Shown: piece by piece, positions 12,289-42,916 of the stretch
Position numbering within the stretch: the first letter of the stretch is position 1
How the letters are laid out: each line of letters starts with the position of its first letter
Origin: Escherichia coli
GTDB taxonomy: Bacteria > Pseudomonadota > Gammaproteobacteria > Enterobacterales > Enterobacteriaceae
DNA length: 64,000 bases
Assembly (NCBI RefSeq): GCF_050320075.1
Contig: NZ_CP190018.1
Strand: one strand, 5' to 3'
Notes under the pieces: model-generated
Seen by the model: only the letters and a program-made list of their open reading frames with translations
Told to the model about the DNA's origin: nothing
Database searches by the model: none
Position numbers and translations under genes: made by a program

Positions 12289-12303
12289 CACAAGGATGGA
12301 TGT

Positions 12304-13065: not shown

Positions 13066-13078
13066 CACTATTCTAATT

Positions 13079-16479: not shown

Positions 16480-16487
16480 AAAAATGG
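16480..16487. repeat. IS1 target-site duplication, left copy (AAAAATGG)
   Basis: 8 bp identical to 17256-17263, immediately flanking the IS1 terminal inverted repeats. Confidence 0.7.
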
Positions 16488-16502
16488 GGTAATGACTCCA
16501 AC

Positions 16503-17200: not shown

Positions 17201-17255
17201 TGGAGCACCTCAAAAACACCATCATACACTAAATCAGTAAGTTGGCAGCATCACC

Positions 17256-17263
17256 AAAAATGG
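17256..17263. repeat. IS1 target-site duplication, right copy (AAAAATGG)
   Basis: Identical to 16480-16487. Confidence 0.7.
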
Positions 17264-17716
17264 CATCATTTCCATTTTAAGGATCACAGCGCGTTGAATC
17301 TCCTCTGTATTTTTTAATAAATACAGTGAGTCCTTTAATGTCAGGGCCGAACGTTCAATATCTTTAAAGAAATAGCCAACGTTTTTCTGAATAAGTTCAA
17401 AGCGGCTATCGGCACGTTTTACCGCGCGTTCCGAAACCAGTTGATAGTTAATGATGAAAAAAAGGCCAATAAATGACAGTGCTGCCAATAAAAATAAAAT
17501 TATCAGCCTTATCTTTATCTTTTCGTATAAACTCAGCATGTTAATACATTTAACAAAATAACTGTCTGAACGCTGTGCCGCTGCAAAAACAGTCCCTTGC
17601 TGCGGCTTTTTAACCAAATTACCCGATTCTACAAAATCAGCAGAAAGTTACAACACTTGCTTAGGGCAATAATTTCCTGTGAGGTGATTACCCTTTCAAG
17701 CAATATTCAAACGTAA

Positions 17717-18628: not shown

Positions 18629-18630
18629 CC

Positions 18631-19551: not shown

Positions 19552-19568
19552 TCCACTCCCTGCGTTGC

Positions 19569-21107: not shown

Positions 21108-21126
21108 TTTATTCTCCGCCTGAATG

Positions 21127-23950: not shown

Positions 23951-24153
23951 AGTATTCATCCATTAAGGGTGGCTCGCCACTTTTGCTATAAATATCAGAA
24001 TTTTTATGAATTACTCATTCAATTTTTGAATATAGAAAGATGGATATGGCATGTAAAGGCAGGAGCCAGCGCTACGCCCGAGGTGGCATACAGTCTGTGG
24101 CGTTTTTCTGACATAATAGGCAAATTCGATTTTGCCTCCGCAGGAGTGTTTTC

Positions 24154-25389: not shown

Positions 25390-26138
25390 TGGCGGAACTC
25401 AGCGATCAGGAGATGTTGCGCTACAACCGGCAAATCATTCTGCGCGGTTTTGATTTTGACGGTCAGGAGGCGCTAAAAGATTCTCGTGTGCTGATCGTCG
25501 GCCTCGGTGGACTCGGCTGCGCAGCTTCGCAGTATCTGGCAAGCGCCGGTGTCGGCAACCTGACGCTGCTCGACTTCGACACGGTTTCGCTCTCCAATCT
25601 GCAACGCCAGACGCTGCACAGTGATGCCACGGTCGGGCAACCGAAAGTGGAATCCGCCCGTGACGCCCTGACGCGGATCAACCCACATATCGCGATTACA
25701 CCCGTCAATGCACTGCTAGATGACGCAGAACTTGCAGCATTGATTGCTGAACACGATCTGGTGCTCGACTGTACGGATAACGTTGCGGTACGCAATCAAC
25801 TGAACGCAGGCTGTTTTGCCGCGAAGGTGCCGCTGGTTTCCGGCGCGGCAATTCGTATGGAAGGTCAAATCACGGTCTTCACTTATCAGGACGGCGAGCC
25901 TTGCTATCGCTGCCTTAGCCGTTTGTTTGGCGAGAACGCGTTAACCTGCGTAGAAGCAGGCGTGATGGCACCGTTGATCGGCGTAATTGGTTCGTTGCAG
26001 GCAATGGAAGCGATCAAACTGCTGGCAGGTTATGGCAAACCGGCCAGCGGGAAAATCGTCATGTACGATGCGATGACCTGCCTGTTTCGTGAAATGAAAC
26101 TGATGCGTAACCCGGGGTGTGAGGTGTGTGGGCAGTAA
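25389..26138 (+). CDS. moeB: Molybdopterin-synthase adenylyltransferase MoeB
   Basis: 249-aa ORF; ThiF/MoeB fold, GLGGLG nucleotide-binding motif and C-terminal CxxC; 1-nt overlap with moeA. Confidence 0.9.
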   Translation: MAELSDQEMLRYNRQIILRGFDFDGQEALKDSRVLIVGLGGLGCAASQYLASAGVGNLTLLDFDTVSLSNLQRQTLHSDATVGQPKVESARDALTRINPHIAITPVNALLDDAELAALIAEHDLVLDCTDNVAVRNQLNAGCFAAKVPLVSGAAIRMEGQITVFTYQDGEPCYRCLSRLFGENALTCVEAGVMAPLIGVIGSLQAMEAIKLLAGYGKPASGKIVMYDAMTCLFREMKLMRNPGCEVCGQ

Positions 26139-26148
26139 TTGCCACCTC

Positions 26149-26180
26149 AGGCCAGATAAGACGTAGCAGGCATCGGTGCA
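26149..26180. repeat. Degenerate REP-like palindromic element
   Basis: GGCCAGATAAGACG...GCATCGG resembles the REP consensus GCCTGATAAGACGCG...CGCATCAGGC; located between convergent moeB and fsaA. Confidence 0.35.
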
Positions 26181-26224
26181 CTCCGCCACGTCATCAGCAA
26201 TTTATGAGGATGCAGAACGTCCGG

Positions 26225-26887
26225 TTAAATCGACGTTCTGCCAAACGCTCCCAGCCAGTCCTGTTCAAACTTCGCCACAGCGGCATCAACCGCCGGATAG
26301 CTAATCATCTGTTGTGCCACATCCAGCGGCAGAGTAATTGATTCACACCCTGCCAGTAAGCAGTCCAGCGCCTGACGCGGGGTTTTGAAACTCGCGGCTA
26401 ACACTTTCGCCTGCGGCGCATGCATTTTCAATAACTGGTGTAAGTCGGTCACAGTCTGAATACCGCTACCGCCCTGAGCATCAATACGATTAACGTAAGG
26501 CGCAACATATTCCGCACCTGCCAGCGCCGACAGTAGCCCTTGTGCCGCGCCATATACCGCGGTTCCCAGCGTCGGAATCCCTTCCGCTTTTAACATCTTA
26601 ATAGCTGCCAGCCCCTCAGCGGTCACCGGAACTTTCACCACGATATCCGCAATAATAGAACGCAATTTACGTGCGTCATTCACCATCCCTTCAGCAGTGG
26701 TAGCCATTACCTGGGCAAACAGACGCCCCTGACCGCCCATCGCTTCATGAAGTTCCGGAAGCACAACCTCCAGCGGTTTTTTACCCGCGGCGATAATGCT
26801 TGGGTTAGTGGTCACACCCGCCAGCGGAAAAATACGTGACAGCGCCTTCACCGCAACAACGTCTGAAGTATCCAGATACAGTTCCAT
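26225..26887 (-). CDS. fsaA: Fructose-6-phosphate aldolase 1
   Basis: ORF 26225..26959; start at internal ATG (26885-26887) giving 220 aa beginning [10 protein letters not shown]. Confidence 0.9.
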
Positions 26888-27017
26888 AACCATCCTCAAA
26901 ATGTACTTTTTGTCTGAATGTAGACTATCACGGGAAAACTCTCTGAACAGTTGACGCACATCAATCTAACTTTCATTCGAAAGTATTTTAATGTTTGAAC
27001 GAAACAGAGAGGCAACT

Positions 27018-27917
27018 ATGATTTTCAATATTCAGCGCTACTCGACCCATGATGGCCCCGGTATCCGCACGGTCGTATTTCTTAAAGGCTGTTCGCTGGG
27101 CTGCCGCTGGTGTCAGAACCCGGAAAGCCGCGCCCGCACGCAGGATCTGCTGTATGACGCACGACTGTGTCTGGAAGGCTGCGAGCTGTGCGCTAAGGCC
27201 GCGCCGGAAGTGATTGAGCGCGCGCTGAATGGCTTGCTTATTCATCGGGAAAAGTTAACCCCGGAGCATCTGACAGCGTTAACCGACTGCTGCCCGACAC
27301 AGGCGTTAACCGTATGTGGTGAAGTGAAAAGCGTTGAGGAGATAATGAAGACCGTTCTGCGCGATAAACCGTTTTACGATCGCAGCGGCGGCGGCTTAAC
27401 GCTTTCTGGCGGTGAACCGTTTATGCAGCCGGAAATGGCGACGGCGCTACTGCAAGCCAGCCACGAGGCCGGCATTCATACTGCGGTAGAAACCTGTCTG
27501 CATGTGCCGTGGAAATATATCACCCCTTCTCTGCCCTATATCGATCTGTTTCTTGCCGATTTAAAACACGTTGCCGACGCACCGTTTAAACAATGGACCG
27601 ACGGTAACGCCGCCAGGGTGCTGGATAACCTGAAAAAACTCGCCGCAGCGGGCAAAAAAATCATTATCCGCGTGCCGCTGATTCAGGGCTTTAATGCCGA
27701 CGAAACCTCTGTAAAAGCCATTACCGATTTTGCTGCCGACGAGCTGCACGTTGGCGAAATTCATTTCCTGCCCTACCACACGCTGGGCATCAACAAATAT
27801 CACTTACTTAATCTGCCCTATGACGCCCCGGAAAAACCGCTTGATGCGCCAGAACTGCTCGACTTTGCCCAGCAGTATGCCTGCCAGAAAGGGTTAACCG
27901 CGACCTTACGAGGATAA
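27018..27917 (+). CDS. pflE: Glycyl-radical enzyme activating protein (PflE/YbiY)
   Basis: ORF 26991..27917; start ATG 27018 ([18 protein letters not shown]); radical-SAM motif CxxxCxxC. Confidence 0.9.
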
Positions 27918-27922
27918 CAACC

Positions 27923-30355
27923 ATGACCACACTGAAACTGGACACGCTCAGCGACCGCATTAAAGCGCACAAAAATGCGCTGGTGCATATTGTGAAACCG
28001 CCGGTCTGTACCGAGCGCGCGCAGCACTATACTGAGATGTATCAACAACATCTCGATAAGCCGATCCCGGTACGTCGCGCGCTGGCGCTGGCGCATCACC
28101 TGGCGAATCGCACTATCTGGATCAAGCACGATGAGTTGATCATTGGCAACCAGGCAAGCGAAGTTCGCGCCGCGCCGATCTTCCCGGAATATACTGTCTC
28201 GTGGATCGAAAAAGAGATTGATGATCTGGCAGATCGTCCCGGTGCTGGCTTTGCGGTGAGCGAAGAGAACAAACGCGTTCTGCATGAAGTGTGCCCGTGG
28301 TGGCGCGGTCAGACCGTACAGGATCGCTGCTACGGCATGTTTACCGATGAGCAAAAAGGTCTGCTGGCGACCGGCATCATTAAAGCGGAAGGCAATATGA
28401 CCTCCGGCGATGCGCACCTGGCGGTCAATTTCCCGCTGCTGCTGGAAAAAGGGCTTGATGGTCTGCGCGAGAAAGTAGCGGAACGTCGCTCGCGCATCAA
28501 CCTGACGGTGCTGGAAGATTTACACGGTGAGCAATTCCTGAAAGCGATTGATATCGTGCTGGTGGCAGTCAGTGAACACATTGAACGTTTCGCTGCCCTG
28601 GCGCGTGAAATGGCCGCGACCGAAACTCGCGAAAGCCGTCGCGATGAGCTGCTGGCGATAGCAGAAAACTGCGATCTTATCGCCCACCAACCGCCGCAGA
28701 CTTTCTGGCAGGCGCTGCAACTGTGTTACTTCATCCAGTTGATTTTGCAGATTGAATCTAACGGTCACTCCGTATCTTTTGGTCGTATGGACCAGTATCT
28801 GTACCCGTATTATCGTCGCGACGTTGAACTCAACCAGACGCTGGATCGTGAACACGCCATCGAGATGCTGCATAGCTGCTGGCTGAAATTGCTGGAAGTG
28901 AACAAGATCCGCTCCGGCTCACACTCAAAAGCCTCTGCGGGAAGTCCGCTGTATCAGAACGTCACTATTGGCGGGCAAAATCTGGTTGATGGTCAACCAA
29001 TGGACGCGGTGAATCCACTCTCTTACGCGATCCTCGAATCCTGCGGTCGCCTGCGTTCCACTCAGCCTAACCTCAGCGTGCGTTACCATGCAGGAATGAG
29101 CAACGATTTCCTCGACGCCTGCGTACAGGTGATCCGTTGCGGCTTCGGGATGCCGGCGTTCAACAACGACGAAATCGTGATCCCGGAATTTATTAAACTC
29201 GGTATTGAACCGCAGGACGCTTACGACTATGCAGCGATTGGTTGTATCGAAACCGCCGTCGGTGGCAAATGGGGCTATCGCTGTACCGGCATGAGCTTTA
29301 TCAACTTCGCCCGTGTGATGCTGGCGGCGCTGGAAGGCGGTCGTGATGCCACCAGCGGCAAAGTGTTCCTGCCACAAGAAAAAGCGTTGTCGGCAGGTAA
29401 CTTCAACAACTTCGATGAAGTGATGGACGCGTGGGATACGCAAATCCGTTACTACACCCGCAAATCAATCGAAATTGAGTATGTCGTCGACACCATGCTG
29501 GAAGAGAACGTACACGATATTCTCTGCTCGGCGCTGGTGGATGACTGTATTGAGCGAGCGAAAAGTATCAAACAAGGCGGCGCGAAATATGACTGGGTTT
29601 CTGGCCTGCAGGTTGGCATTGCCAACCTCGGCAACAGCCTGGCGGCAGTGAAGAAACTGGTATTTGAACAGGGCGCGATTGGTCAGCAACAGCTGGCTGC
29701 CGCACTGGCGGATGACTTCGATGGCCTGACTCATGAGCAACTGCGTCAGCGGCTGATTAACGGTGCGCCGAAGTACGGCAACGACGATGATACCGTCGAT
29801 ACGCTGCTGGCTCGCGCTTATCAGACCTATATCGACGAACTGAAACAGTACCATAACCCACGCTACGGTCGTGGTCCGGTTGGCGGCAACTATTACGCGG
29901 GTACGTCGTCTATCTCCGCTAACGTACCGTTTGGCGCGCAGACTATGGCAACACCGGACGGGCGTAAAGCCCACACCCCGCTGGCAGAAGGCGCAAGCCC
30001 GGCTTCCGGTACTGATCATCTTGGCCCTACTGCGGTCATTGGCTCGGTGGGTAAACTGCCTACGGCAGCGATTCTCGGCGGCGTGTTGCTCAACCAGAAA
30101 CTGAATCCAGCAACACTGGAGAACGAATCTGACAAGCAGAAACTGATGATCCTGCTGCGCACCTTCTTCGAGGTGCATAAAGGCTGGCATATTCAGTACA
30201 ACATCGTTTCCCGCGAGACGCTGCTGGAAGCGAAAAAACATCCGGATCAGTACCGCGATCTGGTAGTGCGTGTCGCGGGTTATTCCGCCTTCTTCACCGC
30301 GCTCTCTCCAGACGCTCAGGACGATATCATCGCCCGTACTGAACATATGCTGTAA
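27923..30355 (+). CDS. pflF: Pyruvate formate-lyase-like glycyl-radical enzyme (PflF/YbiW)
   Basis: 810-aa ORF; C-terminal glycyl-radical motif RVAGYSA. Confidence 0.9.
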   Translation: MTTLKLDTLSDRIKAHKNALVHIVKPPVCTERAQHYTEMYQQHLDKPIPVRRALALAHHLANRTIWIKHDELIIGNQASEVRAAPIFPEYTVSWIEKEIDDLADRPGAGFAVSEENKRVLHEVCPWWRGQTVQDRCYGMFTDEQKGLLATGIIKAEGNMTSGDAHLAVNFPLLLEKGLDGLREKVAERRSRINLTVLEDLHGEQFLKAIDIVLVAVSEHIERFAALAREMAATETRESRRDELLAIAENCDLIAHQPPQTFWQALQLCYFIQLILQIESNGHSVSFGRMDQYLYPYYRRDVELNQTLDREHAIEMLHSCWLKLLEVNKIRSGSHSKASAGSPLYQNVTIGGQNLVDGQPMDAVNPLSYAILESCGRLRSTQPNLSVRYHAGMSNDFLDACVQVIRCGFGMPAFNNDEIVIPEFIKLGIEPQDAYDYAAIGCIETAVGGKWGYRCTGMSFINFARVMLAALEGGRDATSGKVFLPQEKALSAGNFNNFDEVMDAWDTQIRYYTRKSIEIEYVVDTMLEENVHDILCSALVDDCIERAKSIKQGGAKYDWVSGLQVGIANLGNSLAAVKKLVFEQGAIGQQQLAAALADDFDGLTHEQLRQRLINGAPKYGNDDDTVDTLLARAYQTYIDELKQYHNPRYGRGPVGGNYYAGTSSISANVPFGAQTMATPDGRKAHTPLAEGASPASGTDHLGPTAVIGSVGKLPTAAILGGVLLNQKLNPATLENESDKQKLMILLRTFFEVHKGWHIQYNIVSRETLLEAKKHPDQYRDLVVRVAGYSAFFTALSPDAQDDIIARTEHML

Positions 30356-30362
30356 TCTTCTC

Positions 30363-30387
30363 AGCCCGGCGGCGTCGTCGCCGGGCT
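30363..30387 (+). terminator. Hairpin downstream of pflF
   Basis: AGCCCGGCG-GCGTCGT-CGCCGGGCT, 9-bp GC stem; weak U-tract. Confidence 0.45.
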
Positions 30388-30500
30388 AAATCATTCACAC
30401 CATCAATTTTAGCCTCGCTTTCATTCGAAATATAATTTGTGCTCTGCGTCACATTGTTATTACACTGTTACGGTTTCATTTTCGAGCCAGGAGCACACCT

Positions 30501-31316
30501 ATGAGCGTAAAAGTTATCGTCACAGACATGGACGGTACTTTTCTTAACGACGCCAAAACGTACAACCAACCACGTTTTATGGCGCAATATCAGGAACTGA
30601 AAAAGCGCGGCATTGAGTTCGTTGTCGCCAGCGGTAATCAGTATTACCAGCTTATTTCATTCTTTCCTGAGCTAAAGGATGAGATCTCTTTTGTCGCGGA
30701 AAACGGCGCACTGGTTTACGAACATGGCAAGCAACTGTTCCACGGCGAACTGACCCGACATGAATCGCGGATTGTTATTGGCGAGTTGCTAAAAGATAAG
30801 CAACTCAATTTTGTCGCCTGCGGTCTGCAAAGTGCATATGTCAGCGAAAATGCCCCCGAAGCATTCGTCGCACTGATGGCAAAACACTACCATCGCCTGA
30901 AACCTGTAAAAGATTATCAGGAGATTGACGACGTACTGTTCAAGTTTTCGCTCAACCTGCCGGATGAACAAATCCCGTTAGTGATCGACAAACTGCACGT
31001 AGCGCTCGACGGCATTATGAAGCCGGTTACCAGTGGTTTTGGCTTTATCGACCTGATTATTCCTGGCCTGCATAAAGCGAATGGTATTTCGCGGTTACTG
31101 AAACGCTGGGATCTGTCACCGCAAAATGTGGTAGCGATTGGCGACAGCGGTAACGATGCGGAGATGCTGAAAATGGCGCGTTATTCCTTTGCGATGGGCA
31201 ATGCTGCGGAAAACATTAAACAAATCGCCCGTTACGCTACCGATGATAATAATCATGAAGGCGCGCTGAATGTGATTCAGGCTGTGCTGGATAACACATC
31301 CCCTTTTAACAGCTGA
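30501..31316 (+). CDS. ybiV: HAD-family sugar phosphatase YbiV
   Basis: 271-aa ORF; DMDGTF and GDSGND motifs; paralogous to ybjI at 2658. Confidence 0.9.
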
Positions 31317-31323
31317 CCTCTCT

Positions 31324-31358
31324 ACCGGAGCCATGCGCTCCGGTTTTCCCTTCTTTTT
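31324..31358 (+). terminator. Intrinsic terminator after ybiV
   Basis: ACCGGAGC-CATGC-GCTCCGGT stem followed by TTTTCCCTTCTTTTT. Confidence 0.7.
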
Positions 31359-31467
31359 ACATCCTGTACATCACATCAAATCATTAAACTTACATTAACT
31401 TATTTATAACTTATATTGTCACATGCAAATCATTATAGTTTCGAATGAAAGTTAATGCGAGGTGGTT

Positions 31468-32733
31468 ATGGCTTCTACTTTTACCAGCGACACATTGCCT
31501 GCCGATCACAAAGCAGCTATCCGTCAGATGAAGCACGCGCTGCGGGCGCAGCTTGGCGACGTCCAGCAGATCTTTAATCAGCTAAGCGATGACATTGCCA
31601 CGCGAGTGGCTGAAATCAACGCACTCAAAGCACAGGGCGATGCCGTCTGGCCGGTGCTGTCTTATGCCGATATCAAAGCAGGTCATGTTACTGCAGAGCA
31701 GCGCATACAGATTAAACGTCGCGGTTGTGCGGTGATAAAAGGCCATTTCCCCCGCGAACAAGCGCTAGGCTGGGATCAGTCGATGCTGGACTATCTGGAC
31801 CGCAACCGCTTTGACGAGGTCTACAAAGGCCCCGGCGATAATTTCTTCGGGACGCTCAGCGCTTCACGTCCCGAGATTTACCCCATCTACTGGTCGCAGG
31901 CGCAAATGCAGGCTCGCCAGAGTGAAGAAATGGCGAATGCGCAGTCGTTTCTCAATCGTCTGTGGACATTTGAAAGTGATGGAAAGCAATGGTTTAACCC
32001 GGATGTGAGCGTCATCTACCCTGACCGTATCCGCCGCCGTCCGCCCGGAACGACCTCCAAAGGTCTTGGAGCGCATACCGACTCCGGGGCACTGGAACGC
32101 TGGCTGCTTCCAGCGTATCAGCGCGTTTTCGCCAACGTCTTTAATGGCAATCTGGCGCAATATGATCCCTGGCATGCGGCACATCGTACGGAAGTTGAAG
32201 AGTACACGGTGGACAACACCACCAAATGTTCCGTGTTTCGGACATTCCAGGGCTGGACAGCGCTCTCTGATATGCTGCCTGGTCAGGGGCTGCTGCACGT
32301 CGTGCCCATTCCTGAAGCCATGGCGTACGTACTGTTACGTCCGCTGCTTGATGATGTGCCGGAGGATGAACTGTGCGGCGTAGCGCCCGGAAGAGTATTG
32401 CCGGTATCAGAGCAATGGCATCCACTGTTGATTGAGGCGTTAACCAGCATTCCAAAACTCGAAGCCGGAGACTCCGTCTGGTGGCACTGCGACGTCATCC
32501 ATTCCGTTGCCCCCGTTGAAAATCAACAGGGCTGGGGCAACGTGATGTACATTCCTGCGGCACCGATGTGCGAGAAAAATCTTGCCTACGCGCACAAGGT
32601 GAAGGCCGCACTGGAAAAAGGCGCATCGCCGGGCGACTTCCCGCGCGAGGACTATGAAACAAACTGGGAAGGACGCTTTACGCTTGCCGACCTCAACATT
32701 CACGGTAAGCGAGCGTTGGGAATCGACAGCTGA
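31468..32733 (+). CDS. ybiU: DUF1479-family protein YbiU
   Basis: ORF 31462..32733; ATG 31468 (MASTFTSDTLPADHK); 421 aa. Confidence 0.85.
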   Translation: MASTFTSDTLPADHKAAIRQMKHALRAQLGDVQQIFNQLSDDIATRVAEINALKAQGDAVWPVLSYADIKAGHVTAEQRIQIKRRGCAVIKGHFPREQALGWDQSMLDYLDRNRFDEVYKGPGDNFFGTLSASRPEIYPIYWSQAQMQARQSEEMANAQSFLNRLWTFESDGKQWFNPDVSVIYPDRIRRRPPGTTSKGLGAHTDSGALERWLLPAYQRVFANVFNGNLAQYDPWHAAHRTEVEEYTVDNTTKCSVFRTFQGWTALSDMLPGQGLLHVVPIPEAMAYVLLRPLLDDVPEDELCGVAPGRVLPVSEQWHPLLIEALTSIPKLEAGDSVWWHCDVIHSVAPVENQQGWGNVMYIPAAPMCEKNLAYAHKVKAALEKGASPGDFPREDYETNWEGRFTLADLNIHGKRALGIDS

Positions 32734-33803
32734 GTGTCGTACAGCCCTTCCCGTTCCACGGCGGTGTTCCCTTTTCCTGGGCGAACCCGCCGCACTGACT
32801 CCCGCACCGCCAATCGTCCGTGCAGCAGCAGCGAGCCCACCGGAGCATCCGGGCGAATCAGCCGCTGTTGCAACATTTGCACCGCTTCATTGCCTAGCTC
32901 ATCGCGTGGCACATGCACAGCCGTCAGGGGAACATCCTCGATTGCCGCAAGGTTAAAGCCGTCGATACTCATCACCGAGACATCCTGTGGTACGCGCAGA
33001 CCACGACGATGTAGCGCATTTACCGTTCCCGCCGCCATAAAATCCCCGCCGACCAGAAACGCCGTCGGCAACGTCTTGCCATTGGCGGCATCCAGCCACG
33101 CTCCGACCTTTTCTTCCGCTTCTTTAGCGCTAAAACTGCTGATATTCAGCAAATGACGGTCATGGTGAAAGGCCAGATTATGCTGACGCCATGATTCTTT
33201 AATCCCTGCAAACCGCTGCTCCATAGTGTAGCGGCGCAGGCACATCACATTCATCACCTCCCGGTGACCCATTTCAAACAGATAGCGGGCGGCGAACGCG
33301 CCAATTAACCGATGGTCCGGCGCAATCGCCGGGAGGCGCATTCGTTCATCACGGCAGTTGATCAGCACACAAGGCTTAGCGAGATCGGCGGCCAGATCAT
33401 GGATGTGCGGATCGTCAATCCCCAGCAGGATCGCCGCCTGCGTATCTGCTTCATTCATTCGCGAGAGAAATAGCGCGGGATCGCTGTCAAACTCCTCCAG
33501 CGCGCAGTAACGCAGCCGCACTTCATGCGGCGATAACGCTTTGCTGATGCTCTGGATCACACGGTAATAAAAGATATCAGATCGTTGGTCAAAAGCGCGT
33601 TGCGGCGCGAAAATAATCAGGTTGTTCAGCAACATACGACCTGCTGCCATGCCATCCATCACGCCCAACTCACGCGCGCAGGCCAGCACCTGTTCGCGAG
33701 CGCGTGCACTGGTATTCGCTTTGCCAGCCAGCACCCGCGAAACCGTACTCGGCGATAGCCCGGTACGTGCGGCGATATCGGCGATTTTCAGCTTCTTGTC
33801 CAT
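32700..33803 (-). CDS. LacI/GalR-family transcriptional regulator (accessory island)
   Basis: ORF 32700..33881; start set at ATG 33801-33803 (MDKKLKIADIAARTGLSPSTVSRVLAG, N-terminal HTH); periplasmic-binding-like effector domain; last ~11 codons are antisense to the ybiU 3' end; not present between ybiU and ybiT in K-12. Confidence 0.8.
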   Translation of the reverse strand: MDKKLKIADIAARTGLSPSTVSRVLAGKANTSARAREQVLACARELGVMDGMAAGRMLLNNLIIFAPQRAFDQRSDIFYYRVIQSISKALSPHEVRLRYCALEEFDSDPALFLSRMNEADTQAAILLGIDDPHIHDLAADLAKPCVLINCRDERMRLPAIAPDHRLIGAFAARYLFEMGHREVMNVMCLRRYTMEQRFAGIKESWRQHNLAFHHDRHLLNISSFSAKEAEEKVGAWLDAANGKTLPTAFLVGGDFMAAGTVNALHRRGLRVPQDVSVMSIDGFNLAAIEDVPLTAVHVPRDELGNEAVQMLQQRLIRPDAPVGSLLLHGRLAVRESVRRVRPGKGNTAVEREGLYDTQLSIPNARLP

Positions 33804-34097
33804 TTTGTGATCTGCCTCTAATTCGGAAATGACAGAATTTTCATGAGCAAAAAAGCCCATTCTGTCTGGCATTAAATCCATTTCAGTAATGTATATCAGT
33901 CACTCATGGAAAAACGTGCACAAAACCCGCTTTCTTTCGCTTTTAGGGTCTCTTACTGTGAATTGGTAGAACAACTTCCATACAAAAATAATGGAAAAAC
34001 GAACAATAAAGACTTTATTTATCAAAAAGTTAAAAGTGGTGTGACAACTCCATTCTGACGTTGCCACACAAACCCTATACCATTCTGTGGAGTGCAT

Positions 34098-35399
34098 ATG
34101 AGTCAGGGTATCAATAACGATATGACTGCCAGTAAACCGCGCCATATCGTCAAAAATCTGCGTTGGTGGATACTGGTCCTTTTTTTGCTCGGTGTTACTG
34201 TCAACTACATCACGCGTAACTCGCTGGGTATTCTCGCCCCCGAACTGAAAAGCAACCTGGGGATTACCACCGAACAATATTCCTGGATTGTAGGTGCTTT
34301 CCAGCTCGCCTATACCCTATTCCAACCGTTGTGTGGATGGCTGATTGACGTCATTGGCCTCAAACTGGGCTTTATGATCTGCGCGGGACTGTGGGCGCTG
34401 GCCTGTCTGATGCATGCGGGGGCGGGAAACTGGGTACATCTGGCGCTGTTGCGCTTCTTTATGGGCGGTGCGGAAGCCGCGGCAACCCCAGCAAACGCCA
34501 AAACCATCGGTGAATGGTTTCCAAAATCAGAACGCCCGATCGCCGCAGGCTGGGCAGGCGTCGGTTTTTCCATCGGTGCCATGCTGGCCCCACCGATTAT
34601 CTATTTTGCCCACGCTTCATTCGGCTGGCAGGGTGCATTTATGTTCACTGGCATCCTGGCGATGCTGTGGGTGGTGCTGTGGTGGGCGTTCTATCACAAC
34701 CCGGATAAGCATCCGAACCTCAGCAAAGCCGAGCTGGACTTTATCCGCCAGGATAACGAAGCGCCCCCGATTAAATTACCCTTTCTGACCGCACTGAAAA
34801 CCGTGGGCAAAAATAAACGCTTTTACGGTATCGCTATCCCGGCCTTTATGGCAGAACCGGCGTGGGCGGTGATGAGTTTCTGGGTGCCGCTATACCTGTC
34901 CAAAACCTATGGCATGGACCTGAAGCAGATCGCATTATTCGCCTGGTTGCCGTTCCTCGCCGCTGATCTTGGCAGTATTGCCAGCGGCTATCTGACCAAA
35001 CTTTACACCCGCCTGTTTGGGCTGAGTCGTGTGAACTCCGTTGTCGCATCATCGGTCAGTGGCGCATTCTTGATGGTTTCGCTGGCGGTGATGGCCTTTA
35101 CCAATAACCCGTATATCGCCATCGTCCTTATTTCCATCGGCGGCTTCGGTCACCAGATCATCTCCTGCATGCTGAGCGCACTGGTGGTGGAATCCTTCGA
35201 CAAAGGTCAGATGGCCACTGTTAACGGCATGCGCGGTTCTGCCGCGTGGATCGCAAGTTTCCTGTTCTCCCTGATTATCGGGGTTACCGCTGACAAAATC
35301 GGCTTTAACCCCCTGTTTATCGCCATGGGCTTCTTTGACCTGATTGGCGCTTTCTTCCTGGTCACCTTTATTGCTGAACGTCGCGCAAAACGCGCCTGA
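34098..35399 (+). CDS. MFS transporter, anion:cation symporter family (ExuT/DgoT-like)
   Basis: ORF 34092..35399; ATG 34098 preceded by GTGGAG SD; 12-TM MFS; strong similarity pattern to recalled ExuT (e.g. TRN, FQPLCGWLIDVIG, GGAEAA, EWFP, FAWLPFLAADLG). Confidence 0.8.
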   Translation: MSQGINNDMTASKPRHIVKNLRWWILVLFLLGVTVNYITRNSLGILAPELKSNLGITTEQYSWIVGAFQLAYTLFQPLCGWLIDVIGLKLGFMICAGLWALACLMHAGAGNWVHLALLRFFMGGAEAAATPANAKTIGEWFPKSERPIAAGWAGVGFSIGAMLAPPIIYFAHASFGWQGAFMFTGILAMLWVVLWWAFYHNPDKHPNLSKAELDFIRQDNEAPPIKLPFLTALKTVGKNKRFYGIAIPAFMAEPAWAVMSFWVPLYLSKTYGMDLKQIALFAWLPFLAADLGSIASGYLTKLYTRLFGLSRVNSVVASSVSGAFLMVSLAVMAFTNNPYIAIVLISIGGFGHQIISCMLSALVVESFDKGQMATVNGMRGSAAWIASFLFSLIIGVTADKIGFNPLFIAMGFFDLIGAFFLVTFIAERRAKRA

Positions 35400-35413
35400 G
35401 AGTGGATGTAAAC

Positions 35414-37777
35414 ATGAAAACGCTGAAAAACTGGACCCTGCACAAACAGTCTGCCCACCACGTTGAACTGCTGGTCGATGGCCAGCATATCCTGTGCCTG
35501 TACGTGCTGGAAGAAAATCTGTTCCGCGTGCTGTTAAAACGCAAAGGCGAGCTGGCGCTGGATCGCACCTGGAGCATTGCTCCGGCGCAGGATGTGCCAT
35601 GGGAAGGGCGCAGCCGCGAAGATCTCAGCGGCTTTAGCCTGCCCGCGTGGACATTGATCCAGCACGACGACACCGTGGTTATCGCCACCGAGTCACTGCG
35701 TGCCACCGTTCACCAGCCGCTGTGGCTGGAGTGGCACTATCGTAACAACGAAGGCGAATGGCTGCCGTTGGTGAATGACCGCCCGACCAGCGCTTATCTG
35801 CTGAATGCCCACGGCGATGGCGTGGCACACTATCAGAGCCGTCGTAAAGATGAACGCTTTTATGGCCTCGGAGATAAAGCCGGCGACCTGCAACGCAACG
35901 GTAAACGTTACGAGATGCGTAACCTCGACGCGATGGGCTACAACGCCGTTAGTACTGACCCGCTGTACAAACACATTCCATTCACCATCACCCGCCGCGA
36001 TGACATTAGCTTCGGCCTGTTTTATGACAACCTCAGCAGCTGCTGGCTGGATCTGGGCAACGAGATCGACAACTACCACACCGCCTATCGCCGCTGGCAG
36101 GCGGAAGCGGGTGATATCGACTACTACCTGTTTACCGGCGAACGCGTACTTGATATCACCAAAGCCTTCGTACGCCTGACCGGCAAAACCCTGTTCGGAC
36201 CGAAATGGAGCCTGGGCTACAGCGGTTCAACTATGCACTACACCGATGCGCCGGACGCACAAAATCAGTTGATGAACTTTATCCGCCTGTGTGAAGAACA
36301 TGCGATTCCCTGCGATTCGTTCCAGCTCTCTTCCGGTTATACCTCAATTAACGGCAAGCGCTATGTGTTCAACTGGAATTACGACAAAGTGCCGCAGCCG
36401 AAAGTGATGAGCCAGGCATTTCACAATGCTGGTTTGCACCTGGCCGCCAATATCAAGCCGTGCCTGTTGCAGGATCACCCACGCTATAACGAAGTGGCAG
36501 AAAGAGGACTGTTCATCCGTGATTCAGAAACAGATGAACCAGAACGTTCCAGCTTCTGGGATGACGAAGGTTCTAACCTCGACTTTACTAATCCGCAGAC
36601 CATCCAGTGGTGGCAGGAAGGCGTGACCACACAGCTTCTGGAGATGGGTATCGACTCCACCTGGAACGACAACAACGAATTCGAAGTATGGGACGGTGAA
36701 GCACGCTGTCACGGCTTTGGTCAGACGATCGCGATCAAACATATTCGCCCGGTGATGCCACTGCTGATGATGCGAGCCTCGATGGAAGCCCAGCAACGTT
36801 TCGCTCCGGAAAAACGTCCGTACTTGATCTCCCGCTCCGGCTGCGCGGGAATGCAGCGCTATGTGCAGACCTGGAGCGGCGATAACCGCACTAGCTGGGA
36901 CACTCTGCGCTACAACACCCGCATGGGTCTGGGGATGAGCCTCTCCGGGCTGTATAACCTCGGTCACGACGTCGGCGGTTTCTCCGGTGATAAGCCGGAC
37001 CCGGAACTGTTTGTACGCTGGGTACAAAACGGCGTGATGCATCCGCGCTTTACGATTCACTCGTGGAACGATGACCATACCGTAAACGAACCGTGGATGT
37101 ATCCGGGCGTCACTCCGGCGATCCGCAGCGCTATTGAGTTGCGCTATCGCCTGCTGCCCTACTTTTATACCCTGATGTGGCAGGCATACGCCGATGATGA
37201 ACCAATGCTGCGTCCGACTTTCCTTGACCACGAGCACGACGTTCAGACTTTTGAAGAGTGTGATGACTTCCTGCTTGGTCGCGATATTTTGGTTGCCAGC
37301 GTCGTAGAGCAAGGCGAGCGCCAGCGCCGTGTATGGCTGCCAGATAACGAAACTGGCTGGTACGATTTCTACAACGGCGAATGGTTCAGTGGCGGTCAGT
37401 GGATCACCCTCGACGCACCGCTGGAGAAACTGCCGCTGATGGTGCGTGCCGGGGCTGGTCTACCGCTCAGCAAACGCATCACCTATGTGAGCGCAGAACA
37501 AGACGATACCCGCGAACTGAAACTGTTCCCGCTGAAAGGTGTGGGCACAACGTCCGGCCTGCTGTTTGAAGACGATGGCGAAAGCTGGGGCTACCAAACT
37601 GGTAATGCGCTTTGGGTGGAATGGGAAATGGTTTGCGATGGGGCGACCATCAACCTGAAAGTCAACGCGCGCGGGGATTATCGACCTGCATGGAGTGCAC
37701 TGAAAGTGTCATTACCAGTGGAAGAAAAACGCACGCTGCTGGTCAATGGTGTTGAAGGGAGTGAATGGATGCGTTAA
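35414..37777 (+). CDS. Glycoside hydrolase family 31 enzyme (alpha-glucosidase-like), specificity unknown
   Basis: ORF 35402..37777; ATG 35414; GH31 signature regions WNDNNEF (nucleophile region, cf. WIDMNE), QTWSGDNRTSW (acid/base region), GHDVGGF. Confidence 0.8.
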   Translation: MKTLKNWTLHKQSAHHVELLVDGQHILCLYVLEENLFRVLLKRKGELALDRTWSIAPAQDVPWEGRSREDLSGFSLPAWTLIQHDDTVVIATESLRATVHQPLWLEWHYRNNEGEWLPLVNDRPTSAYLLNAHGDGVAHYQSRRKDERFYGLGDKAGDLQRNGKRYEMRNLDAMGYNAVSTDPLYKHIPFTITRRDDISFGLFYDNLSSCWLDLGNEIDNYHTAYRRWQAEAGDIDYYLFTGERVLDITKAFVRLTGKTLFGPKWSLGYSGSTMHYTDAPDAQNQLMNFIRLCEEHAIPCDSFQLSSGYTSINGKRYVFNWNYDKVPQPKVMSQAFHNAGLHLAANIKPCLLQDHPRYNEVAERGLFIRDSETDEPERSSFWDDEGSNLDFTNPQTIQWWQEGVTTQLLEMGIDSTWNDNNEFEVWDGEARCHGFGQTIAIKHIRPVMPLLMMRASMEAQQRFAPEKRPYLISRSGCAGMQRYVQTWSGDNRTSWDTLRYNTRMGLGMSLSGLYNLGHDVGGFSGDKPDPELFVRWVQNGVMHPRFTIHSWNDDHTVNEPWMYPGVTPAIRSAIELRYRLLPYFYTLMWQAYADDEPMLRPTFLDHEHDVQTFEECDDFLLGRDILVASVVEQGERQRRVWLPDNETGWYDFYNGEWFSGGQWITLDAPLEKLPLMVRAGAGLPLSKRITYVSAEQDDTRELKLFPLKGVGTTSGLLFEDDGESWGYQTGNALWVEWEMVCDGATINLKVNARGDYRPAWSALKVSLPVEEKRTLLVNGVEGSEWMR

Positions 37778-37784
37778 ATCATTA

Positions 37785-37819
37785 CCGGGGCCGGGAGGCG
37801 ACTGCGCCTTACCCGGTCC
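37785..37819. repeat. REP-like element at the island/ybiT boundary
   Basis: GCCGGGAGGCGACTGCGCCTTACCCGGTCC resembles the REP consensus GCCGGATGCGGCGTGAACGCCTTATCCGGCC. Confidence 0.35.
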
Positions 37820-37956
37820 AGCCATCGAATCCTTTACCTCAGTATTTCACGCTGCAGGAAGGCAGCAAACCTGTAAACCCCGGGAGCTTAAATAAGTAAG
37901 TGACCGGGGTGAACAGGTGAAGCCAATGCATCTGCCGCATGAAAGACGGCGGGAAA

Positions 37957-39552
37957 TTAACCGTCGATCCCTTTACTACGCAGGTAATCTTCGTAATTAC
38001 CGCTAAAGTCGATCACGCGTTCCGGGGTGATTTCCAGAATTCGGGTCGCCAGGGAGCTTACAAACTCACGGTCGTGAGACACAAAGATCAGCGTGCCCTG
38101 ATACAGTTCCAGCGCCATGTTCAGCGACTCAATAGATTCCATATCCAGGTGGTTGGTCGGTTCGTCCATGATCAGAATGTTCGGCTTCTGCATCATTAAC
38201 TTACCAAACAGCATCCGCCCTTTTTCTCCACCGGAAAGCACTTTCGCTGGCTTTTTGATGTCGTCCTGGCTGAACAGCAAACGACCGAGAATGCTGCGTA
38301 CCGCCTGCTCATCATCGCCTTCCTGCTTCCACTGGCTCATCCATTCGAACACGGTCAGATCATTTTCAAACTCATATTCGTGGTCCTGGGCGTAGTAACC
38401 AATGCGTGCGTTTTCAGACCATTTTACGGTGCCGCTGTCCGGTTGCAGATCGCCCACCAGCGTTTTCAGCAGCGTTGATTTACCGACGCCGTTGGTACCC
38501 AGTACAGCCAGTTTTTCACCCACTTCCAGCAGCAGGTTGAGATTTTTAAACAGTGGACCGTTATCAAACCCTTTGGTCAGACCTTCCACTTCCAGCGCGT
38601 TACGGAACAGTTTCTTATCCTGTTCAAAACGGATGAACGGGTTCTGACGGCTGGAGGCTTTCACCTCTTCCAGTTTGATTTTATCAATCTGGCGCGCGCG
38701 CGAAGTTGCCTGGCGAGATTTCGAGGCGTTGGCGCTAAAGCGGCTAACGAAAGATTGCAGCTCAGCAATCTGCGCTTTCTTCTTGGCGTTATCAGCCAGC
38801 AGACGCTCACGCGCCTGGGTCGCCGCCGTCATGTACTCATCGTAGTTACCTGGATAAACGCGCAGCTCGCCGTAATCCAGATCCGCCATGTGGGTACAAA
38901 CCATGTTAAGGAAGTGACGGTCGTGCGAGATGATGATCATGGTGCTGTCACGCTCGTTCAGCACCTGTTCCAGCCAACGAATGGTGTCGATGTCGAGGTT
39001 GTTGGTCGGTTCGTCGAGCAGGAGAATGTCTGGATCAGCAAACAGCGCCTGCGCCAGCAGCACACGCAGCTTCCAGCCAGGAGCAACTTCACTCATCGGG
39101 CCGTAGTGCTGTTCCACTGGAATTCCCACGCCAAGCAACAGTTCACCGGCGCGAGCTTCCGCAGAGTAACCGTCCATTTCGCCGTATTTCACTTCCAGAT
39201 CGGCCACTTTATAGCCGTCTTCTTCACTCATTTCCGGCAAAGCATAGATGCGGTCACGCTCCTGTTTCACTTCCCACAACTCTTTATGCCCCATGATCAC
39301 CGTATCCAACACAGTGAACTCTTCAAAGGCAAACTGATCCTGACGCAGCTTACCAATGCGCTCGTTGGGATCGAGGGAAACGTTACCCAACGTCGGCTCT
39401 AAGTCGCCGCCGAGGATCTTCATAAAGGTGGATTTACCACTACCGTTCGCGCCAATCAGGCCGTAACGGTTGCCGCCGCCAAATTTGACGGAAATGTTTT
39501 CAAACAACGGCTTACTGCCGAACTGCATGGTGACGTTACTGGAAACTAACAC
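37957..39552 (-). CDS. ybiT: ABC-F family ATPase YbiT
   Basis: 531-codon ORF with two ABC domains ([18 protein letters not shown]); start codon GTG as given by the ORF track, exact start uncertain. Confidence 0.85.
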
Positions 39553-39770
39553 AGGCGTATCCTGAAAAGAGATATGACAAACCGCGCATTATGCCATAAG
39601 TCTGAAAGAAGATCCTGCTCCTCGCTTAAGGTCTACACTCAAGCCAAAGGCAAAAAATGTGATTTCGTACACATCTGATTTCACTGTGAGCAGGAATGAA
39701 CTTATAATGCGCTTCCAATACTCTAATATTCTCAACCCAATGGCCTGCCAGGCACAAAATCTCGCTTAAC

Positions 39771-40691
39771 ATGAATATGAAATTGAAAACATTATTCGCA
39801 GCGGCCTTCGCTGTTGTCGGCTTTTGCAGTACCGCCTCTGCGGTAACTTATCCTCTGCCAACCGACGGGAGTCGCCTGGTTGGTCAGAATCAGGTGATCA
39901 CCATTCCTGAAGGTAACACTCAGCCGCTGGAGTATTTTGCCGCCGAGTACCAGATGGGGCTTTCCAATATGATGGAAGCGAACCCGGGTGTGGATACCTT
40001 CCTGCCGAAAGGCGGTACTGTACTGAACATTCCGCAGCAGCTGATCCTGCCGGATACCGTTCATGAAGGCATCGTCATTAACAGTGCAGAGATGCGTCTG
40101 TATTACTATCCGAAAGGAACCAACACCGTTATCGTGCTGCCGATCGGCATTGGTCAGTTAGGCAAAGACACGCCTATCAACTGGACCACCAAAGTTGAGC
40201 GTAAGAAAGCAGGCCCGACCTGGACGCCAACCGCTAAAATGCACGCAGAGTACCGCGCTGCGGGCGAACCGCTTCCGGCTGTCGTTCCGGCAGGTCCGGA
40301 TAACCCGATGGGTCTGTATGCACTCTACATCGGTCGCCTGTACGCTATCCATGGCACCAACGCCAACTTCGGTATCGGCCTGCGCGTAAGTCATGGTTGT
40401 GTGCGCCTGCGTAACGAAGACATCAAATTCCTGTTCGAGAAAGTGCCGGTCGGTACTCGCGTACAGTTTATTGATGAGCCGGTAAAAGCGACCACCGAGC
40501 CAGACGGCAGCCGTTATATTGAAGTCCATAATCCGCTGTCTACCACCGAAGCCCAGTTTGAAGGTCAGGAAATTGTGCCAATTACCCTGACGAAGAGTGT
40601 GCAGACAGTGACCGGTCAGCCTGATGTTGACCAGGTTGTTCTGGATGAAGCGATCAAAAATCGTTCCGGGATGCCGGTTCGTCTGAATTAA
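39771..40691 (+). CDS. ldtB: L,D-transpeptidase LdtB (YbiS)
   Basis: 306-aa ORF with signal peptide and YkuD catalytic motif SHGCVRL. Confidence 0.9.
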
Positions 40692-40710
40692 TCGTCAAAA
40701 CGTAAAACAG

Positions 40711-40737
40711 AGGCGGACTCATCATCCGCCTTTTTTA
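40711..40737. terminator. Bidirectional intrinsic terminator between ldtB and ybiR
   Basis: AGGCGGA-CTCATCA-TCCGCCT followed by TTTTTT. Confidence 0.75.
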
Positions 40738-40748
40738 TTTGCCAGATC

Positions 40749-41867
40749 CTACCAGGCCGGGAGCATAACGAATAAAACGTATCCCACCAGCGCCGCCCAC
40801 AACAGCATCGGTATTGAATAGAGATGGAAACGCCACCAGATACGGCGATCGTTCGCCATCCGTAACGCAATCAAATTTGCCAGCGATCCGGGTAATAAAC
40901 CAAAGCCCCCCACGTTTACCGCCCATGCCAGTAATAAAGACGGCGGTACATAATTGAGCAGCAAAATGGTACTCGGCACGTTACTGATCACCTGCGATAA
41001 ACCGATTGCCGTTAACCATAACCCGGGTTCAGATAAATGACTCACGTTACCCAACACACCTTGCAACGCTGGAAGCTGGGTCAGTAAATGGACGTCGATA
41101 AACATCGCCATAAACACCAGCAGCAGCGTCCAGTCCACACTGAGCACCACGCGACGTGCCAGCAGCGCAAAGCCCGCCGCCACAATCACCAGTCCCCACA
41201 GCTCTTGTTTTAACTCCAGCGCCGTCAGAAAGACGATATACAGCCCCAGACAACTCCACACCAGCCGCGGTTTCCACTCCGGAGTTTGCACCCCCGTATG
41301 GTATTGCAGTGCCTTTCCAGGGAAACAACACCAGCACAGGAGCAGGAGCGTCAGCATCATTGCGCCAGCCAGTGGTGCCATTTGGGCAATAAATCCGGCA
41401 AACGAAAGACCAGAACGTCCCCAGATAAGAATATTTTGCGGGTTGCCAATTGGCGTCAGTAGCGAACCAGCGTTGACTGCCAGCGCTTCAAAAATAATCA
41501 GCCGATTAACCGGGATCTCACACAGTCTTTTTAGCGTGATAGTCAGCGGAACAACAATAAACAGCGCGACATCGTTGGTCAGAAAGGTAGAAAGCAGCGC
41601 CGCCGCCAGCACCATAAACATCGCCAGCCGACGCTCCGTAGCAAAGCGGCGCACCATTTTGCGCCCCAGCACATCAAAATAACCGCTTAACTCCACACCT
41701 TTGGTCAGCAGCATCAGGCCGCTTAAGGTGATGATGGTGTGCCAGTCGATAGCAGCAGGCCAGGATTTCGGTGCAAAAGGCACGAAAAAGCTTAATCCGA
41801 TACCAACAAGAATTAATAACTGAAAAAAACGATCGCCTTGCAGCGTGCGTAAAAAAGGCAGGCTCAT
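40749..41867 (-). CDS. ybiR: Putative anion transporter YbiR (ArsB/NhaD-type permease)
   Basis: 372-aa polytopic membrane ORF; 4-bp overlap with mntR upstream. Confidence 0.85.
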
Positions 41868-42331
41868 TTGGCACCGTGTTTCTGGGTAAACAAACGAAAA
41901 GCGTCGAGCGTCTCTTCACTAACATGGTGCTCCATGCCTTCCGCGTCGCGACGGGCGATTTCCGGACTGACGCCCAACACCAACAAGAAATTTTCGACTA
42001 TCTGATGTCGCTCGCGGCTTTCCTGCGCCAGCTTCTCTCCTTCTGCCGTTAAAAACACGCCACGCCAGGGGATCATTTCAATCAGCCCCATGGTTGCCAG
42101 TCGCTTAAGCATTTTAGCCACCGTCGGTTGCGAAACTCCCAAACGAGCAGCCATGTCTACCTGACGAGCTTCCCCCACTTCCCTGATCAAGTCAGAAATC
42201 AGCTCAACGTAATCATCAATAAGCTCGCGCCGATGCGCCTCTCTGACCTGGCGGAACCCTTCAACGTGCTCTTCCACGTTCACTAACTGCGTCACTTTTT
42301 TTGCTGTTGGCGTACCTGCGCGACGACTCAT
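41864..42331 (-). CDS. mntR: Manganese-responsive transcriptional regulator MntR (DtxR family)
   Basis: 155-aa ORF matching recalled MntR ([22 protein letters not shown]...). Confidence 0.9.
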
Positions 42332-42436
42332 TGTGCTTCCTCATTATGGTGACGCATACATAGCGTTCTCATTTCGTGCGCACATTGTAAACCAGAGTTG
42401 CGAAGGTACAAAAAATTAACGTTTTAGCAATAGCTA

Positions 42437-42458
42437 TATAATATAGCCTGTGCTATAT
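42437..42458 (+). promoter_or_regulatory. mntS promoter -10 (TATAAT) overlapping an MntR box
   Basis: ATATAGC-CTGT-GCTATAT perfect 7-bp inverted repeat (42441-42458), matching the ATAGC-N4-GCTAT MntR core; TATAAT at ~42437-42442. Confidence 0.6.
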
Positions 42459-42516
42459 CTGTATGTAATGCAATCATCCCTCAAGGATCGACGGGATTAG
42501 CAAGTCAGGAGGTCTT

Positions 42517-42645
42517 ATGAATGAGTTCAAGAGGTGTATGCGCGTGTTTAGTCATTCTCCCTTTAAAGTACGGTTAATGCTGCTCTCTATGTTGTGCGAT
42601 ATGGTCAACAACAAACCGCAGCAAGATAAACCTTCCGATAAATAG
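42517..42645 (+). CDS. mntS: Small protein MntS (42 aa), not reported by the ORF track
   Basis: AGGAGG SD then ATG 42517; translation MNEFKRCMRVFSHSPFKVRLMLLSMLCDMVNNKPQQDKPSDK matches recalled MntS; TAG at 42643-42645. Confidence 0.85.
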   Translation: MNEFKRCMRVFSHSPFKVRLMLLSMLCDMVNNKPQQDKPSDK

Positions 42646-42680
42646 CGGCGTCACGGTACGCCGCTTCACTCCTGCTTTTA
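42644..42680 (+). terminator. Candidate terminator after mntS
   Basis: AGCGGCGT-CACGGT-ACGCCGCT 8-bp stem overlapping the stop codon, followed by T-containing tract. Confidence 0.5.
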
Positions 42681-42916
42681 TGCAGGCACAACGCGTTTTG
42701 GTCTGAAAAACCCCACTTTTTGTCGGATTTGCAATCCCCTTCGCAAAAGATTTGTTCGTCAGTAGTTGACCTGAACGGCGGCGCGCTCTATCTTCCTGCA
42801 GCCCTGCGTATATTGCGGCTCGCGGATGCGGACCCCTTTCCCCTCTCCACGCACTCTTGCAGGTATTGACCCTTGACGCCAGGGTAAGCACATGGCGTTT
42901 GTTACGATAGTGGCAT

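Follow-up and report, generated by a model that had tools for sequence, protein, structure and literature searches.

The piece between positions 42,332 and 42,680 of the 64,000-nt stretch of Escherichia coli DNA analyzed here (the window; assembly GCF_050320075.1, contig NZ_CP190018.1) raises the question of whether a 42-codon reading frame left out of the list of open reading frames is a true gene, and of how its expression would be controlled. From the sequence letters, the original prediction had taken the product for MntS and had proposed manganese-dependent repression of its promoter by MntR. On the evidence set out below, the locus is almost certainly the E. coli mntS (RybA) gene with its MntR-controlled promoter. 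The gene, its repression by MntR, and the action of its product on MntP have already been published, and biologically nothing new is established by finding them again in this window.

The reading frame was found with its quoted translation at 42517-42645 on the plus strand, where 42 codons, opened by an ATG and closed by a TAG, encode MNEFKRCMRVFSHSPFKVRLMLLSMLCDMVNNKPQQDKPSDK. Its absence from the track had been put down to a size cut-off, and the ORF lister indeed has a default minimum of 60 aa that would drop a 42-aa product. The NCBIfam equivalog model NF033226 (small_MntS), whose cut-off is 36 bits, matched residues 1-39 with 96 bits (E = 6e-28); the 42-aa MntS matched no family in our local copy of Pfam, and MntS homologues carry the precomputed Pfam label PF26599 MntS. 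Of 5426 complete E. coli genomes, 5421 matched a 585-bp query over the mntR-mntS intergenic region. Among the matches listed the RefSeq name for the reading frame was mntS, the top match being a 100% identical chicken isolate with the gene order ldtB, ybiR, mntR, mntS, opgE, ompX, yliM, rhtA. Compared with K-12 MG1655, the window shows no base difference over 42200-42652, so that the promoter, leader, and reading frame are identical to those of K-12 mntS (b4705)/rybA (b4416) and the product is that of b4705. The alignment to K-12 runs over 801 bp without indels and holds seven substitutions, each downstream of the mntS stop codon, including one in the loop of each of the two 3' hairpins discussed below (42653 and 42679); the neighbors ybiR, mntR, opgE, ompX, rhtA, and dps are also shared. 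The identity first proposed is thus borne out by family score, RefSeq name, and K-12 identity, and the database search, on whose failure to find MntS the original prediction had staked itself, matched MntS instead.

The transcript of this gene is the one annotated in K-12 as the 340-nt RybA (852725..853064), corresponding to 42450..42789 on the plus strand of the window; the original prediction made no mention of this RNA identity. On published northern blots it appears as seven species that share one 5' end and range in size from 205 to ~400 nt. A hairpin had been predicted to overlap the stop codon. This hairpin 1, AGCGGCGT-CACGGT-ACGCCGCT, does lie at 42644..42665 (+), its first two bases being the AG of the TAG, and combines 8 bp, six of them GC pairs, with a 6-nt loop (-13.8 kcal/mol). 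It is kept in nine of ten genera, and in seven of the ten a U-rich tail, for example UUCAUUUUU, comes directly after it; there it is a canonical intrinsic terminator, which points to termination as its ancestral role. In E. coli and Kluyvera the tail has degenerated. The E. coli version reads UUCACUCCUG, with no U-tract 3' of the hairpin, so that hairpin 1 is not a canonical terminator in this species; a terminator scan found nothing in the E. coli sequence. Immediately downstream, folding predicts a hairpin 2, CCTGC-TTTTAT-GCAGG, at 42671..42686 (+), which is specific to E. coli and poorly conserved elsewhere, and the single-sequence fold of the 3' region is marginally more stable than its shuffles (z = -1.35).

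Published Term-seq data place a 3' end, listed as "primary" for mntS, at K-12 852845 (window 42669, 4 nt past hairpin 1), another at 852816 (window 42698, within GUUUU after hairpin 2), and a third at 852973 (window 42541, inside the mntS reading frame). Position 852816 stands twice in the Term-seq table, which we read as two data sets. The mapped 3' ends fit the seven published RNA species with one 5' end. They also bear on an alternative in which hairpin 1 in E. coli is a structure for 3'-end protection or processing and not a terminator: transcription would run on, ending downstream or by Rho, and exonucleases would trim back to the stem. The missing U-run and the empty terminator scan speak for it, as do the mapped end so close beyond the stem, the second abundant end 29 nt farther downstream, the existence of RNAs of up to ~400 nt, and the annotated K-12 rybA 3' end (42789), which falls inside a conserved downstream promoter and not at a terminator. 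However, the same hairpin with a U-rich tail is a canonical terminator in seven of the ten genera, and a weakened terminator can still halt part of the transcripts. We consider a pure processing role possible but somewhat doubtful; the end at 42669 may stem either from weak termination or from trimming back to hairpin 1.

That the transcript serves chiefly as a messenger is indicated by the conservation of the protein. Among 5.8 billion proteins searched, 136 homologues were found, with lengths of 38-72 aa, mostly 41-43 aa, those named MntS coming from Escherichia, Citrobacter, Salmonella, Trabulsiella, Kosakonia, Kluyvera, Enterobacter, and Klebsiella. Among 18 representatives, 19 residues are invariant (M1, N2, E3, K5, R6, C7, V10, F11, H13, S14, P15, F16, V18, R19, L20, L22, C27, K33, and P34), and the 42-aa product of the window has all 19, together with a length within the 40-45 aa of the family and the core MNEFKRC..VFSHSPF.VRL..L.C..KP, including Pro15-Phe16. 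In the ten-genus DNA alignment, composed of E. coli and nine fetched mntS loci, identity at codon positions 1, 2, and 3 was 0.885, 0.953, and 0.744, the third position being the least conserved; pN/pS between E. coli and the other genera was 0.10-0.25, the averages for 45 pairs being 0.59 for pS and 0.12 for pN, and the two remaining reading frames contain stop codons. These substitution patterns argue strongly that purifying selection acts on the MntS protein. The synteny, with ybiR-mntR divergent from mntS and opgE following it, is kept in all nine further loci examined. The strong Shine-Dalgarno (SD) sequence of the original prediction stands as well: AGGAGG lies at 42507..42512 (+), 4 nt upstream of the ATG, and a GGAGG or GGAG resembling it is retained in 10/10 aligned genera. 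In published work the MntS protein has been shown to be made and to be responsible for the phenotypes, and Salmonella MntS has been detected by Ribo-seq and Western blotting.

The opposite reading, in which the transcript is mainly a non-coding, base-pairing small RNA (RybA) and the 42-codon reading frame is incidental or secondary, draws on the K-12 RefSeq annotation, which still carries a 340-nt ncRNA rybA here, on Gerstle 2012, in which RybA is reported to affect genes for aromatic amino acids during peroxide stress, and on reports of RybA as a ProQ and RhsFI ligand. Against it stand the selection on the protein and the conservation of its SD and start codon. In addition, outside the promoter, the leader hairpin, and hairpin 1, the untranslated sequence is poorly conserved (62-77%), and no Rfam family matches: with permissive E-values, a search of 41800-43200 returned only a chance snoRNA match (E = 0.86). 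Moreover, the published phenotypes need the protein and do not need Hfq, and stop-codon mutants largely refute an RNA-only function. An incidental reading frame is thus very unlikely; a dual function, MntS protein plus RybA RNA, is possible.

With MntS retained as the main product, the next element of the locus is its promoter. The palindrome ATATAGC-N4-GCTATAT of the original prediction was found at 42441..42458 as a perfect 7+4+7 inverted repeat, ATATAGC-CTGT-GCTATAT (box B), covering -9 to +9. It overlaps the hexamer TATAAT (42437..42442, +) by 2 nt, so that the predicted overlap holds, but the box reaches only into the last bases of the -10, extends across the transcription start, and does not sit squarely over the -10. 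Nor is it alone: box B is real, but a second, MntR-like box A, TTTTAGC-AATA-GCTATAT, occupies 42422..42439 (-28 to -11), its core TTAGC-AATA-GCTAT (42424-42437) departing from ATAGC-N4-GCTAT by one mismatch, so that the operator is tandem and consists of two adjacent boxes instead of one. The -35/-10 spacer of PmntS lies wholly within box A, and the two boxes are mirror images about 42440, which gives a nested palindrome of 31 bp.

Within the 64-kb window, the full palindrome has a single exact match, whereas the naive expectation for 14 specified bases, by our own arithmetic, is ~2e-4 per window. Allowing up to three mismatches gave four matches against 1.65 expected, three of the four at the mntS and dps promoters. 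The shorter core ATAGC-N4-GCTAT, with at most one mismatch, has three matches in 64 kb, two at mntS and one at the dps promoter; those at 42443-56 (box B) and at 46540-53, over the dps promoter, are exact. The same inverted repeat is common to the K-12 mntH and mntP operators. It lies upstream of mntH as one exact box, a single-box arrangement that differs from that of mntS, and the mntP promoter, like mntS, pairs a degenerate TTAGC box with a perfect one. The two systems differ in geometry: the mntS boxes are 19 bp apart, center to center, and overlap the core promoter, an arrangement for repression, whereas those of mntP are 40 bp apart and far upstream, where MntR has been published to activate. 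As expected of an MntR-repressed promoter, the mntS operator overlaps the core promoter and the start site at 42450.

The start site itself rests on the K-12 RefSeq rybA 5' end, 853064, which maps without indels to 42450. TATAAT ends 8 nt upstream of this position, making the hexamer the likely -10. The 5' boundary of a CLIP-seq peak discussed below, 853065, corresponds to 42449, one base upstream of that 5' end. Across the genera the -10 reads TATAAT, TAAAAT, or TAGAAT in eight of ten, varying mainly at its third position, and the outliers are the Salmonella sequence (TAAAAC) and Enterobacter (AGTAAT). At 42416..42421 (+), 15 bp from the -10, a -35-like TTAACG is invariant in the ten genera and would be the -35 of PmntS, albeit a weak hexamer. 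A simple sigma-70 promoter scan did not call PmntS, because this spacer of 15 bp falls outside the 16-18 bp that the scan allows. Taken as a block, the promoter (42408-42470) is the most conserved DNA of the locus across the ten genera, with 94% identity against 84% for the reading frame, and column identity reaches 89% in box A and 98% in box B.

Manganese has been shown to repress PmntS-egfp only when MntR is present, and this finding, the operator core common to the mntH and mntP promoters, and the divergent position of mntR next to mntS bring together the case for the proposed Mn/MntR repression; two MntR dimers, occupying both boxes, would occlude the core promoter. That the palindrome instead serves another regulator, or is a chance repeat at the -10 of an AT-rich, TATA-like region, is exceedingly unlikely even though reporter screens have suggested Cra and ArcA inputs at the rybA promoter, given how rare a perfect 14-base palindrome would be, its identical core at three further MntR-regulated promoters, its 98% conservation in ten genera beside mntR, and the published requirement of repression for MntR and Mn. 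Directly downstream of the MntR operator, the segment from +10 to +21, CTGTATGTAATG (42459..42470, +), is near-invariant in the ten genera. A Fur site was considered as the cause and rejected on a poor match to the Fur box by eye, and a literature search found no link to Fur. Nor does the listed mntR 5'UTR described below support a minus-strand -35 that a promoter scan predicted within the segment.

On the other side of the intergenic region lies mntR (41864..42331, minus strand), encoding the Mn-sensing DtxR-family regulator (155 aa; NCBIfam NF008273, 269 bits against a cut-off of 153; Pfam Fe_dep_repress and Fe_dep_repr_C), in agreement with the RefSeq annotation. It is divergent from mntS, 185 bp before the mntS ATG, and overlaps ybiR (40749-41867) by 4 nt. 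Its promoter is probably that predicted at 42378..42411 on the minus strand, with a -35-like TTGTAC (42411..42406), a 16-bp spacer, a -10 TACAAT (42389..42384), and a start at ~42378; ATTGTA at 42384-89, whose reverse complement is this -10, is invariant in the ten genera, and Supplementary Data 1 of Potts 2017 lists an mntR 5'UTR at K-12 853136-853182, that is, window 42378-42332. With a start at 42378, past TACAAT, the MntR boxes fall upstream of the mntR -35. The scan also predicted a minus-strand mntR promoter within the operator (-35 ATTACA, 42469..64; -10 TATATT, 42445..40), which we rejected as the main mntR promoter on the grounds that the listed 5'UTR starts at 42378; a minor second promoter there is possible. 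There was no indication either way of mntR autoregulation through the boxes.

We propose the following sequence of events. When cytoplasmic manganese is sufficient, Mn-loaded MntR would bind boxes A and B; box A, in the -35/-10 spacer, and box B, which takes in the final 2 nt of the -10 and continues to +9, would jointly block RNA polymerase. Upon manganese scarcity, the operators would be free and transcription would start from 42450, with the strong AGGAGG of a 67-nt leader driving translation of the 42-residue MntS. Published work describes that MntS binds and inhibits the exporter MntP, resulting in a rise in cellular manganese. Most transcripts end shortly past the reading frame, at 42669 and 42698, and some continue towards opgE. 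Our analysis establishes the identity of the gene, the purifying selection, the likeness of the operator to those of further MntR targets, its placement with respect to the annotated 5' end, and its conservation; the repression by Mn and MntR, the translation of mntS, the inhibition of MntP, and the mapping of the 3' ends come from the literature.

Beyond the promoter, the mRNA leader may carry a further layer of control. Between the operator and the SD, the sequence is only 67% conserved in the ten genera. It includes a hairpin, AUCCCUC-AAGGAUC-GA(C)GGGAU (42476..42497, +; minimum free energy fold), which is a candidate CsrA site with the GGA of its loop AAGGAUC (42483-89) at 42485-87. An A-N-GGA between complementary arms of differing sequence is nevertheless kept in every genus aligned, and folding each sequence separately places it in a hairpin loop in nine of ten genera. 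Pair counts were anchored on the GGA, which leaves no alignment freedom, and cover ten related sequences: in the 7-bp stem, 71% of cells are paired against 63 +/- 3% in shuffles (reached in 1/500), and the covariation score is 0.26 against 0.14 in shuffles (2/500), with four of the seven pairs changing on both sides and slid registers scoring lower. These counts lend moderate support to a conserved leader stem. RNAalifold on the whole 5' UTR gave only -0.68 kcal/mol with almost no covariation term; because a bulge shifts the register between species, it was replaced by the per-species folds and GGA-anchored counts. The single-sequence fold of the 5' UTR did not exceed that of shuffled sequences in stability (z = +0.5).

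The distance from the GGA of the loop to that of the SD is 23 nt in E. coli and 23-28 nt across the ten enterobacterial genera. A CsrA dimer can reach across ~10-63 nt between GGA sites, and the second GGA lies within this reach in all ten. An ANGGA in an apical loop conforms to the accepted, published motif rule for CsrA. Moreover, Supplementary Data 1 of Potts 2017 contains a CsrA CLIP-seq peak on mntS (peak_81, K-12 852943-853065; log2 enrichment 1.93, padj 5.8e-12), which covers the leader hairpin and has its maximum at 853004, a position within the SD (window 42510). This peak goes unmentioned in the main text of Potts 2017, the site appearing only in the supplementary table, and mntS is absent from the part covered of the expression table; literature searches for CsrA with mntS or RybA returned incidental co-mentions only and no paper linking them, and the supplements of Potts 2019, with Salmonella CsrA data, have no mntS entry. 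Like CsrA-repressed leaders such as that of glgC, the mntS leader has a GGA in a hairpin loop and another in the SD, and in vivo CsrA crosslinking to it has been reported, but, in contrast to the glgC type, no CsrA regulatory effect on mntS has been. Hence, CsrA binding to the mntS leader is supported, and we hypothesize that CsrA regulates mntS. In this hypothesis, a CsrA dimer would bridge two candidate sites, the hairpin loop (42483-89) and the SD GGA (42508-10), and block the ribosome, placing MntS synthesis under a second, post-transcriptional control. We advance this tentatively, rating it just short of evenly balanced. That CsrA may control the translation of MntS is the only new lead of the locus.

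Published comparisons also relate the protein to signal peptides. Wright et al. found MntS to be homologous to the 40- to 45-residue signal peptides of MntR-associated SitA proteins, with which it shares a PF motif and from which it has inherited its association with MntR. What sets MntS apart from SitA, the binding protein of an Mn ABC importer, is its lower hydrophobicity and the loss of both the mature domain and the AXA cleavage motif (Wright et al.). In the account of the Waters laboratory, MntS arose from such a SitA signal peptide, self-associates with manganese, and inhibits the exporter MntP by binding to it.

Proteins of fewer than 50 aa that act on membrane transporters and come from short stress-induced transcripts, as does MntS, include SgrT (on SgrS), MgtS, and AcrZ; we know of no sequence relationship between these and MntS. 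RybA/MntS has been called dual-function, as has SgrS/SgrT, but the evidence for base pairing is much thinner for RybA than for SgrS.

Altogether, the locus is a positive control, in which a reading of the raw sequence recovered a 42-codon gene together with its operator, its -10, and its 3' hairpin, and it illustrates how an ORF track with a length cut-off overlooks functional small proteins. Two features of its regulation may be useful to specialists. The first is an operator built as a nested double palindrome that is more conserved than the gene under its control. The second is a conserved CsrA-type dual site that coincides with an unremarked CLIP-seq peak and makes for a cheap hypothesis; if true, CsrA control would tie the retention of manganese to the carbon and stationary-phase Csr circuit.

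Between mntS and opgE, the intergenic region at 42716-42916 carries a promoter and several conserved blocks. The promoter (TTGACC-17-TATCTT, 42766-42794) lies between the two genes, and both of its hexamers are invariant in the DNA alignment of E. coli and nine other mntS loci (ten genera). A conserved block, TTTGCAA...GCAAAA, is found upstream of it at about 42733-53, and the presumed opgE leader contains three further blocks conserved in the same alignment, GCAGCCCTG, CGCCAGGG, and GCACATGGCG. The 3' end of rybA annotated in K-12 (42789) falls inside this promoter, and a 3' end listed as Rho-dependent in published data lies within opgE, 37 nt from its start (K-12 852560, corresponding to 42954 of the window). 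Rfam gave no match in the mntS-opgE intergenic region. This region may represent an uncharacterized leader element of opgE.

An exact MntR-type box (ATAGC-CGGT-GCTAT, 46540-46553) is also found upstream of dps (ATG at 46603), 50 to 63 nt ahead of the gene, where it overlaps a -10-like hexamer, TATACT (46551-56). The dps gene is reported as a member of the MntR regulon in the 2011 work of Yamamoto, and the exact box fits this membership. The MntR scheme of Martin 2015 includes dps.

On the minus strand, the CLIP-seq table of Potts 2017 contains a CsrA peak on mntR (peak_82, 42112-42335, padj 0.02), weaker than peak_81 on mntS. Peak_82 starts 4 nt ahead of the mntR ATG and reaches into the coding region, and a published Term-seq 3' end is located 11 nt into mntR (K-12 853194, window 42320). 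At the other end of the gene, the mntR stop and the start of ybiR, encoding an anion transporter of the DASS/CitMHS type, overlap by 4 nt (41864-41867). As this overlap is kept in all nine other loci, it suggests translational coupling of the regulator MntR with this transporter.

The MntS protein (42517-42645) matched no family in the Pfam-A scan (E <= 0.01), at odds with the precomputed labels of its homologues, which give PF26599 (MntS); the Pfam-A copy scanned probably predates this model.

In E. coli AHB29 (NZ_OZ547246.1, locus L015, positions 1-2520), a P2-like prophage encoding an integrase, CI, and CII is integrated directly upstream of mntS, with its junction corresponding to window position ~42433. 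Phage DNA stands in place of the mntS -35 and MntR box A, while TATAAT, box B, and the mntS gene are retained. Searched against the phage collection, the prophage integrase gave no more than weak matches. As matching places exceed records by 33 for the 585-bp intergenic query in complete E. coli genomes, a few dozen of them may have this region split in a similar way.

Early in the mntS transcript, the segment CTGTATGTAATG (42459-42470, +10 to +21) is near-invariant across the ten genera and lies outside both MntR boxes, A and B, and outside the 5'-UTR hairpin. Further downstream, published Term-seq data place a 3' end at 42541 (K-12 852973), within the mntS ORF and 24 nt past its ATG. An RNA ending there would be a 92-nt 5' fragment carrying the CsrA-type hairpin and the SD.
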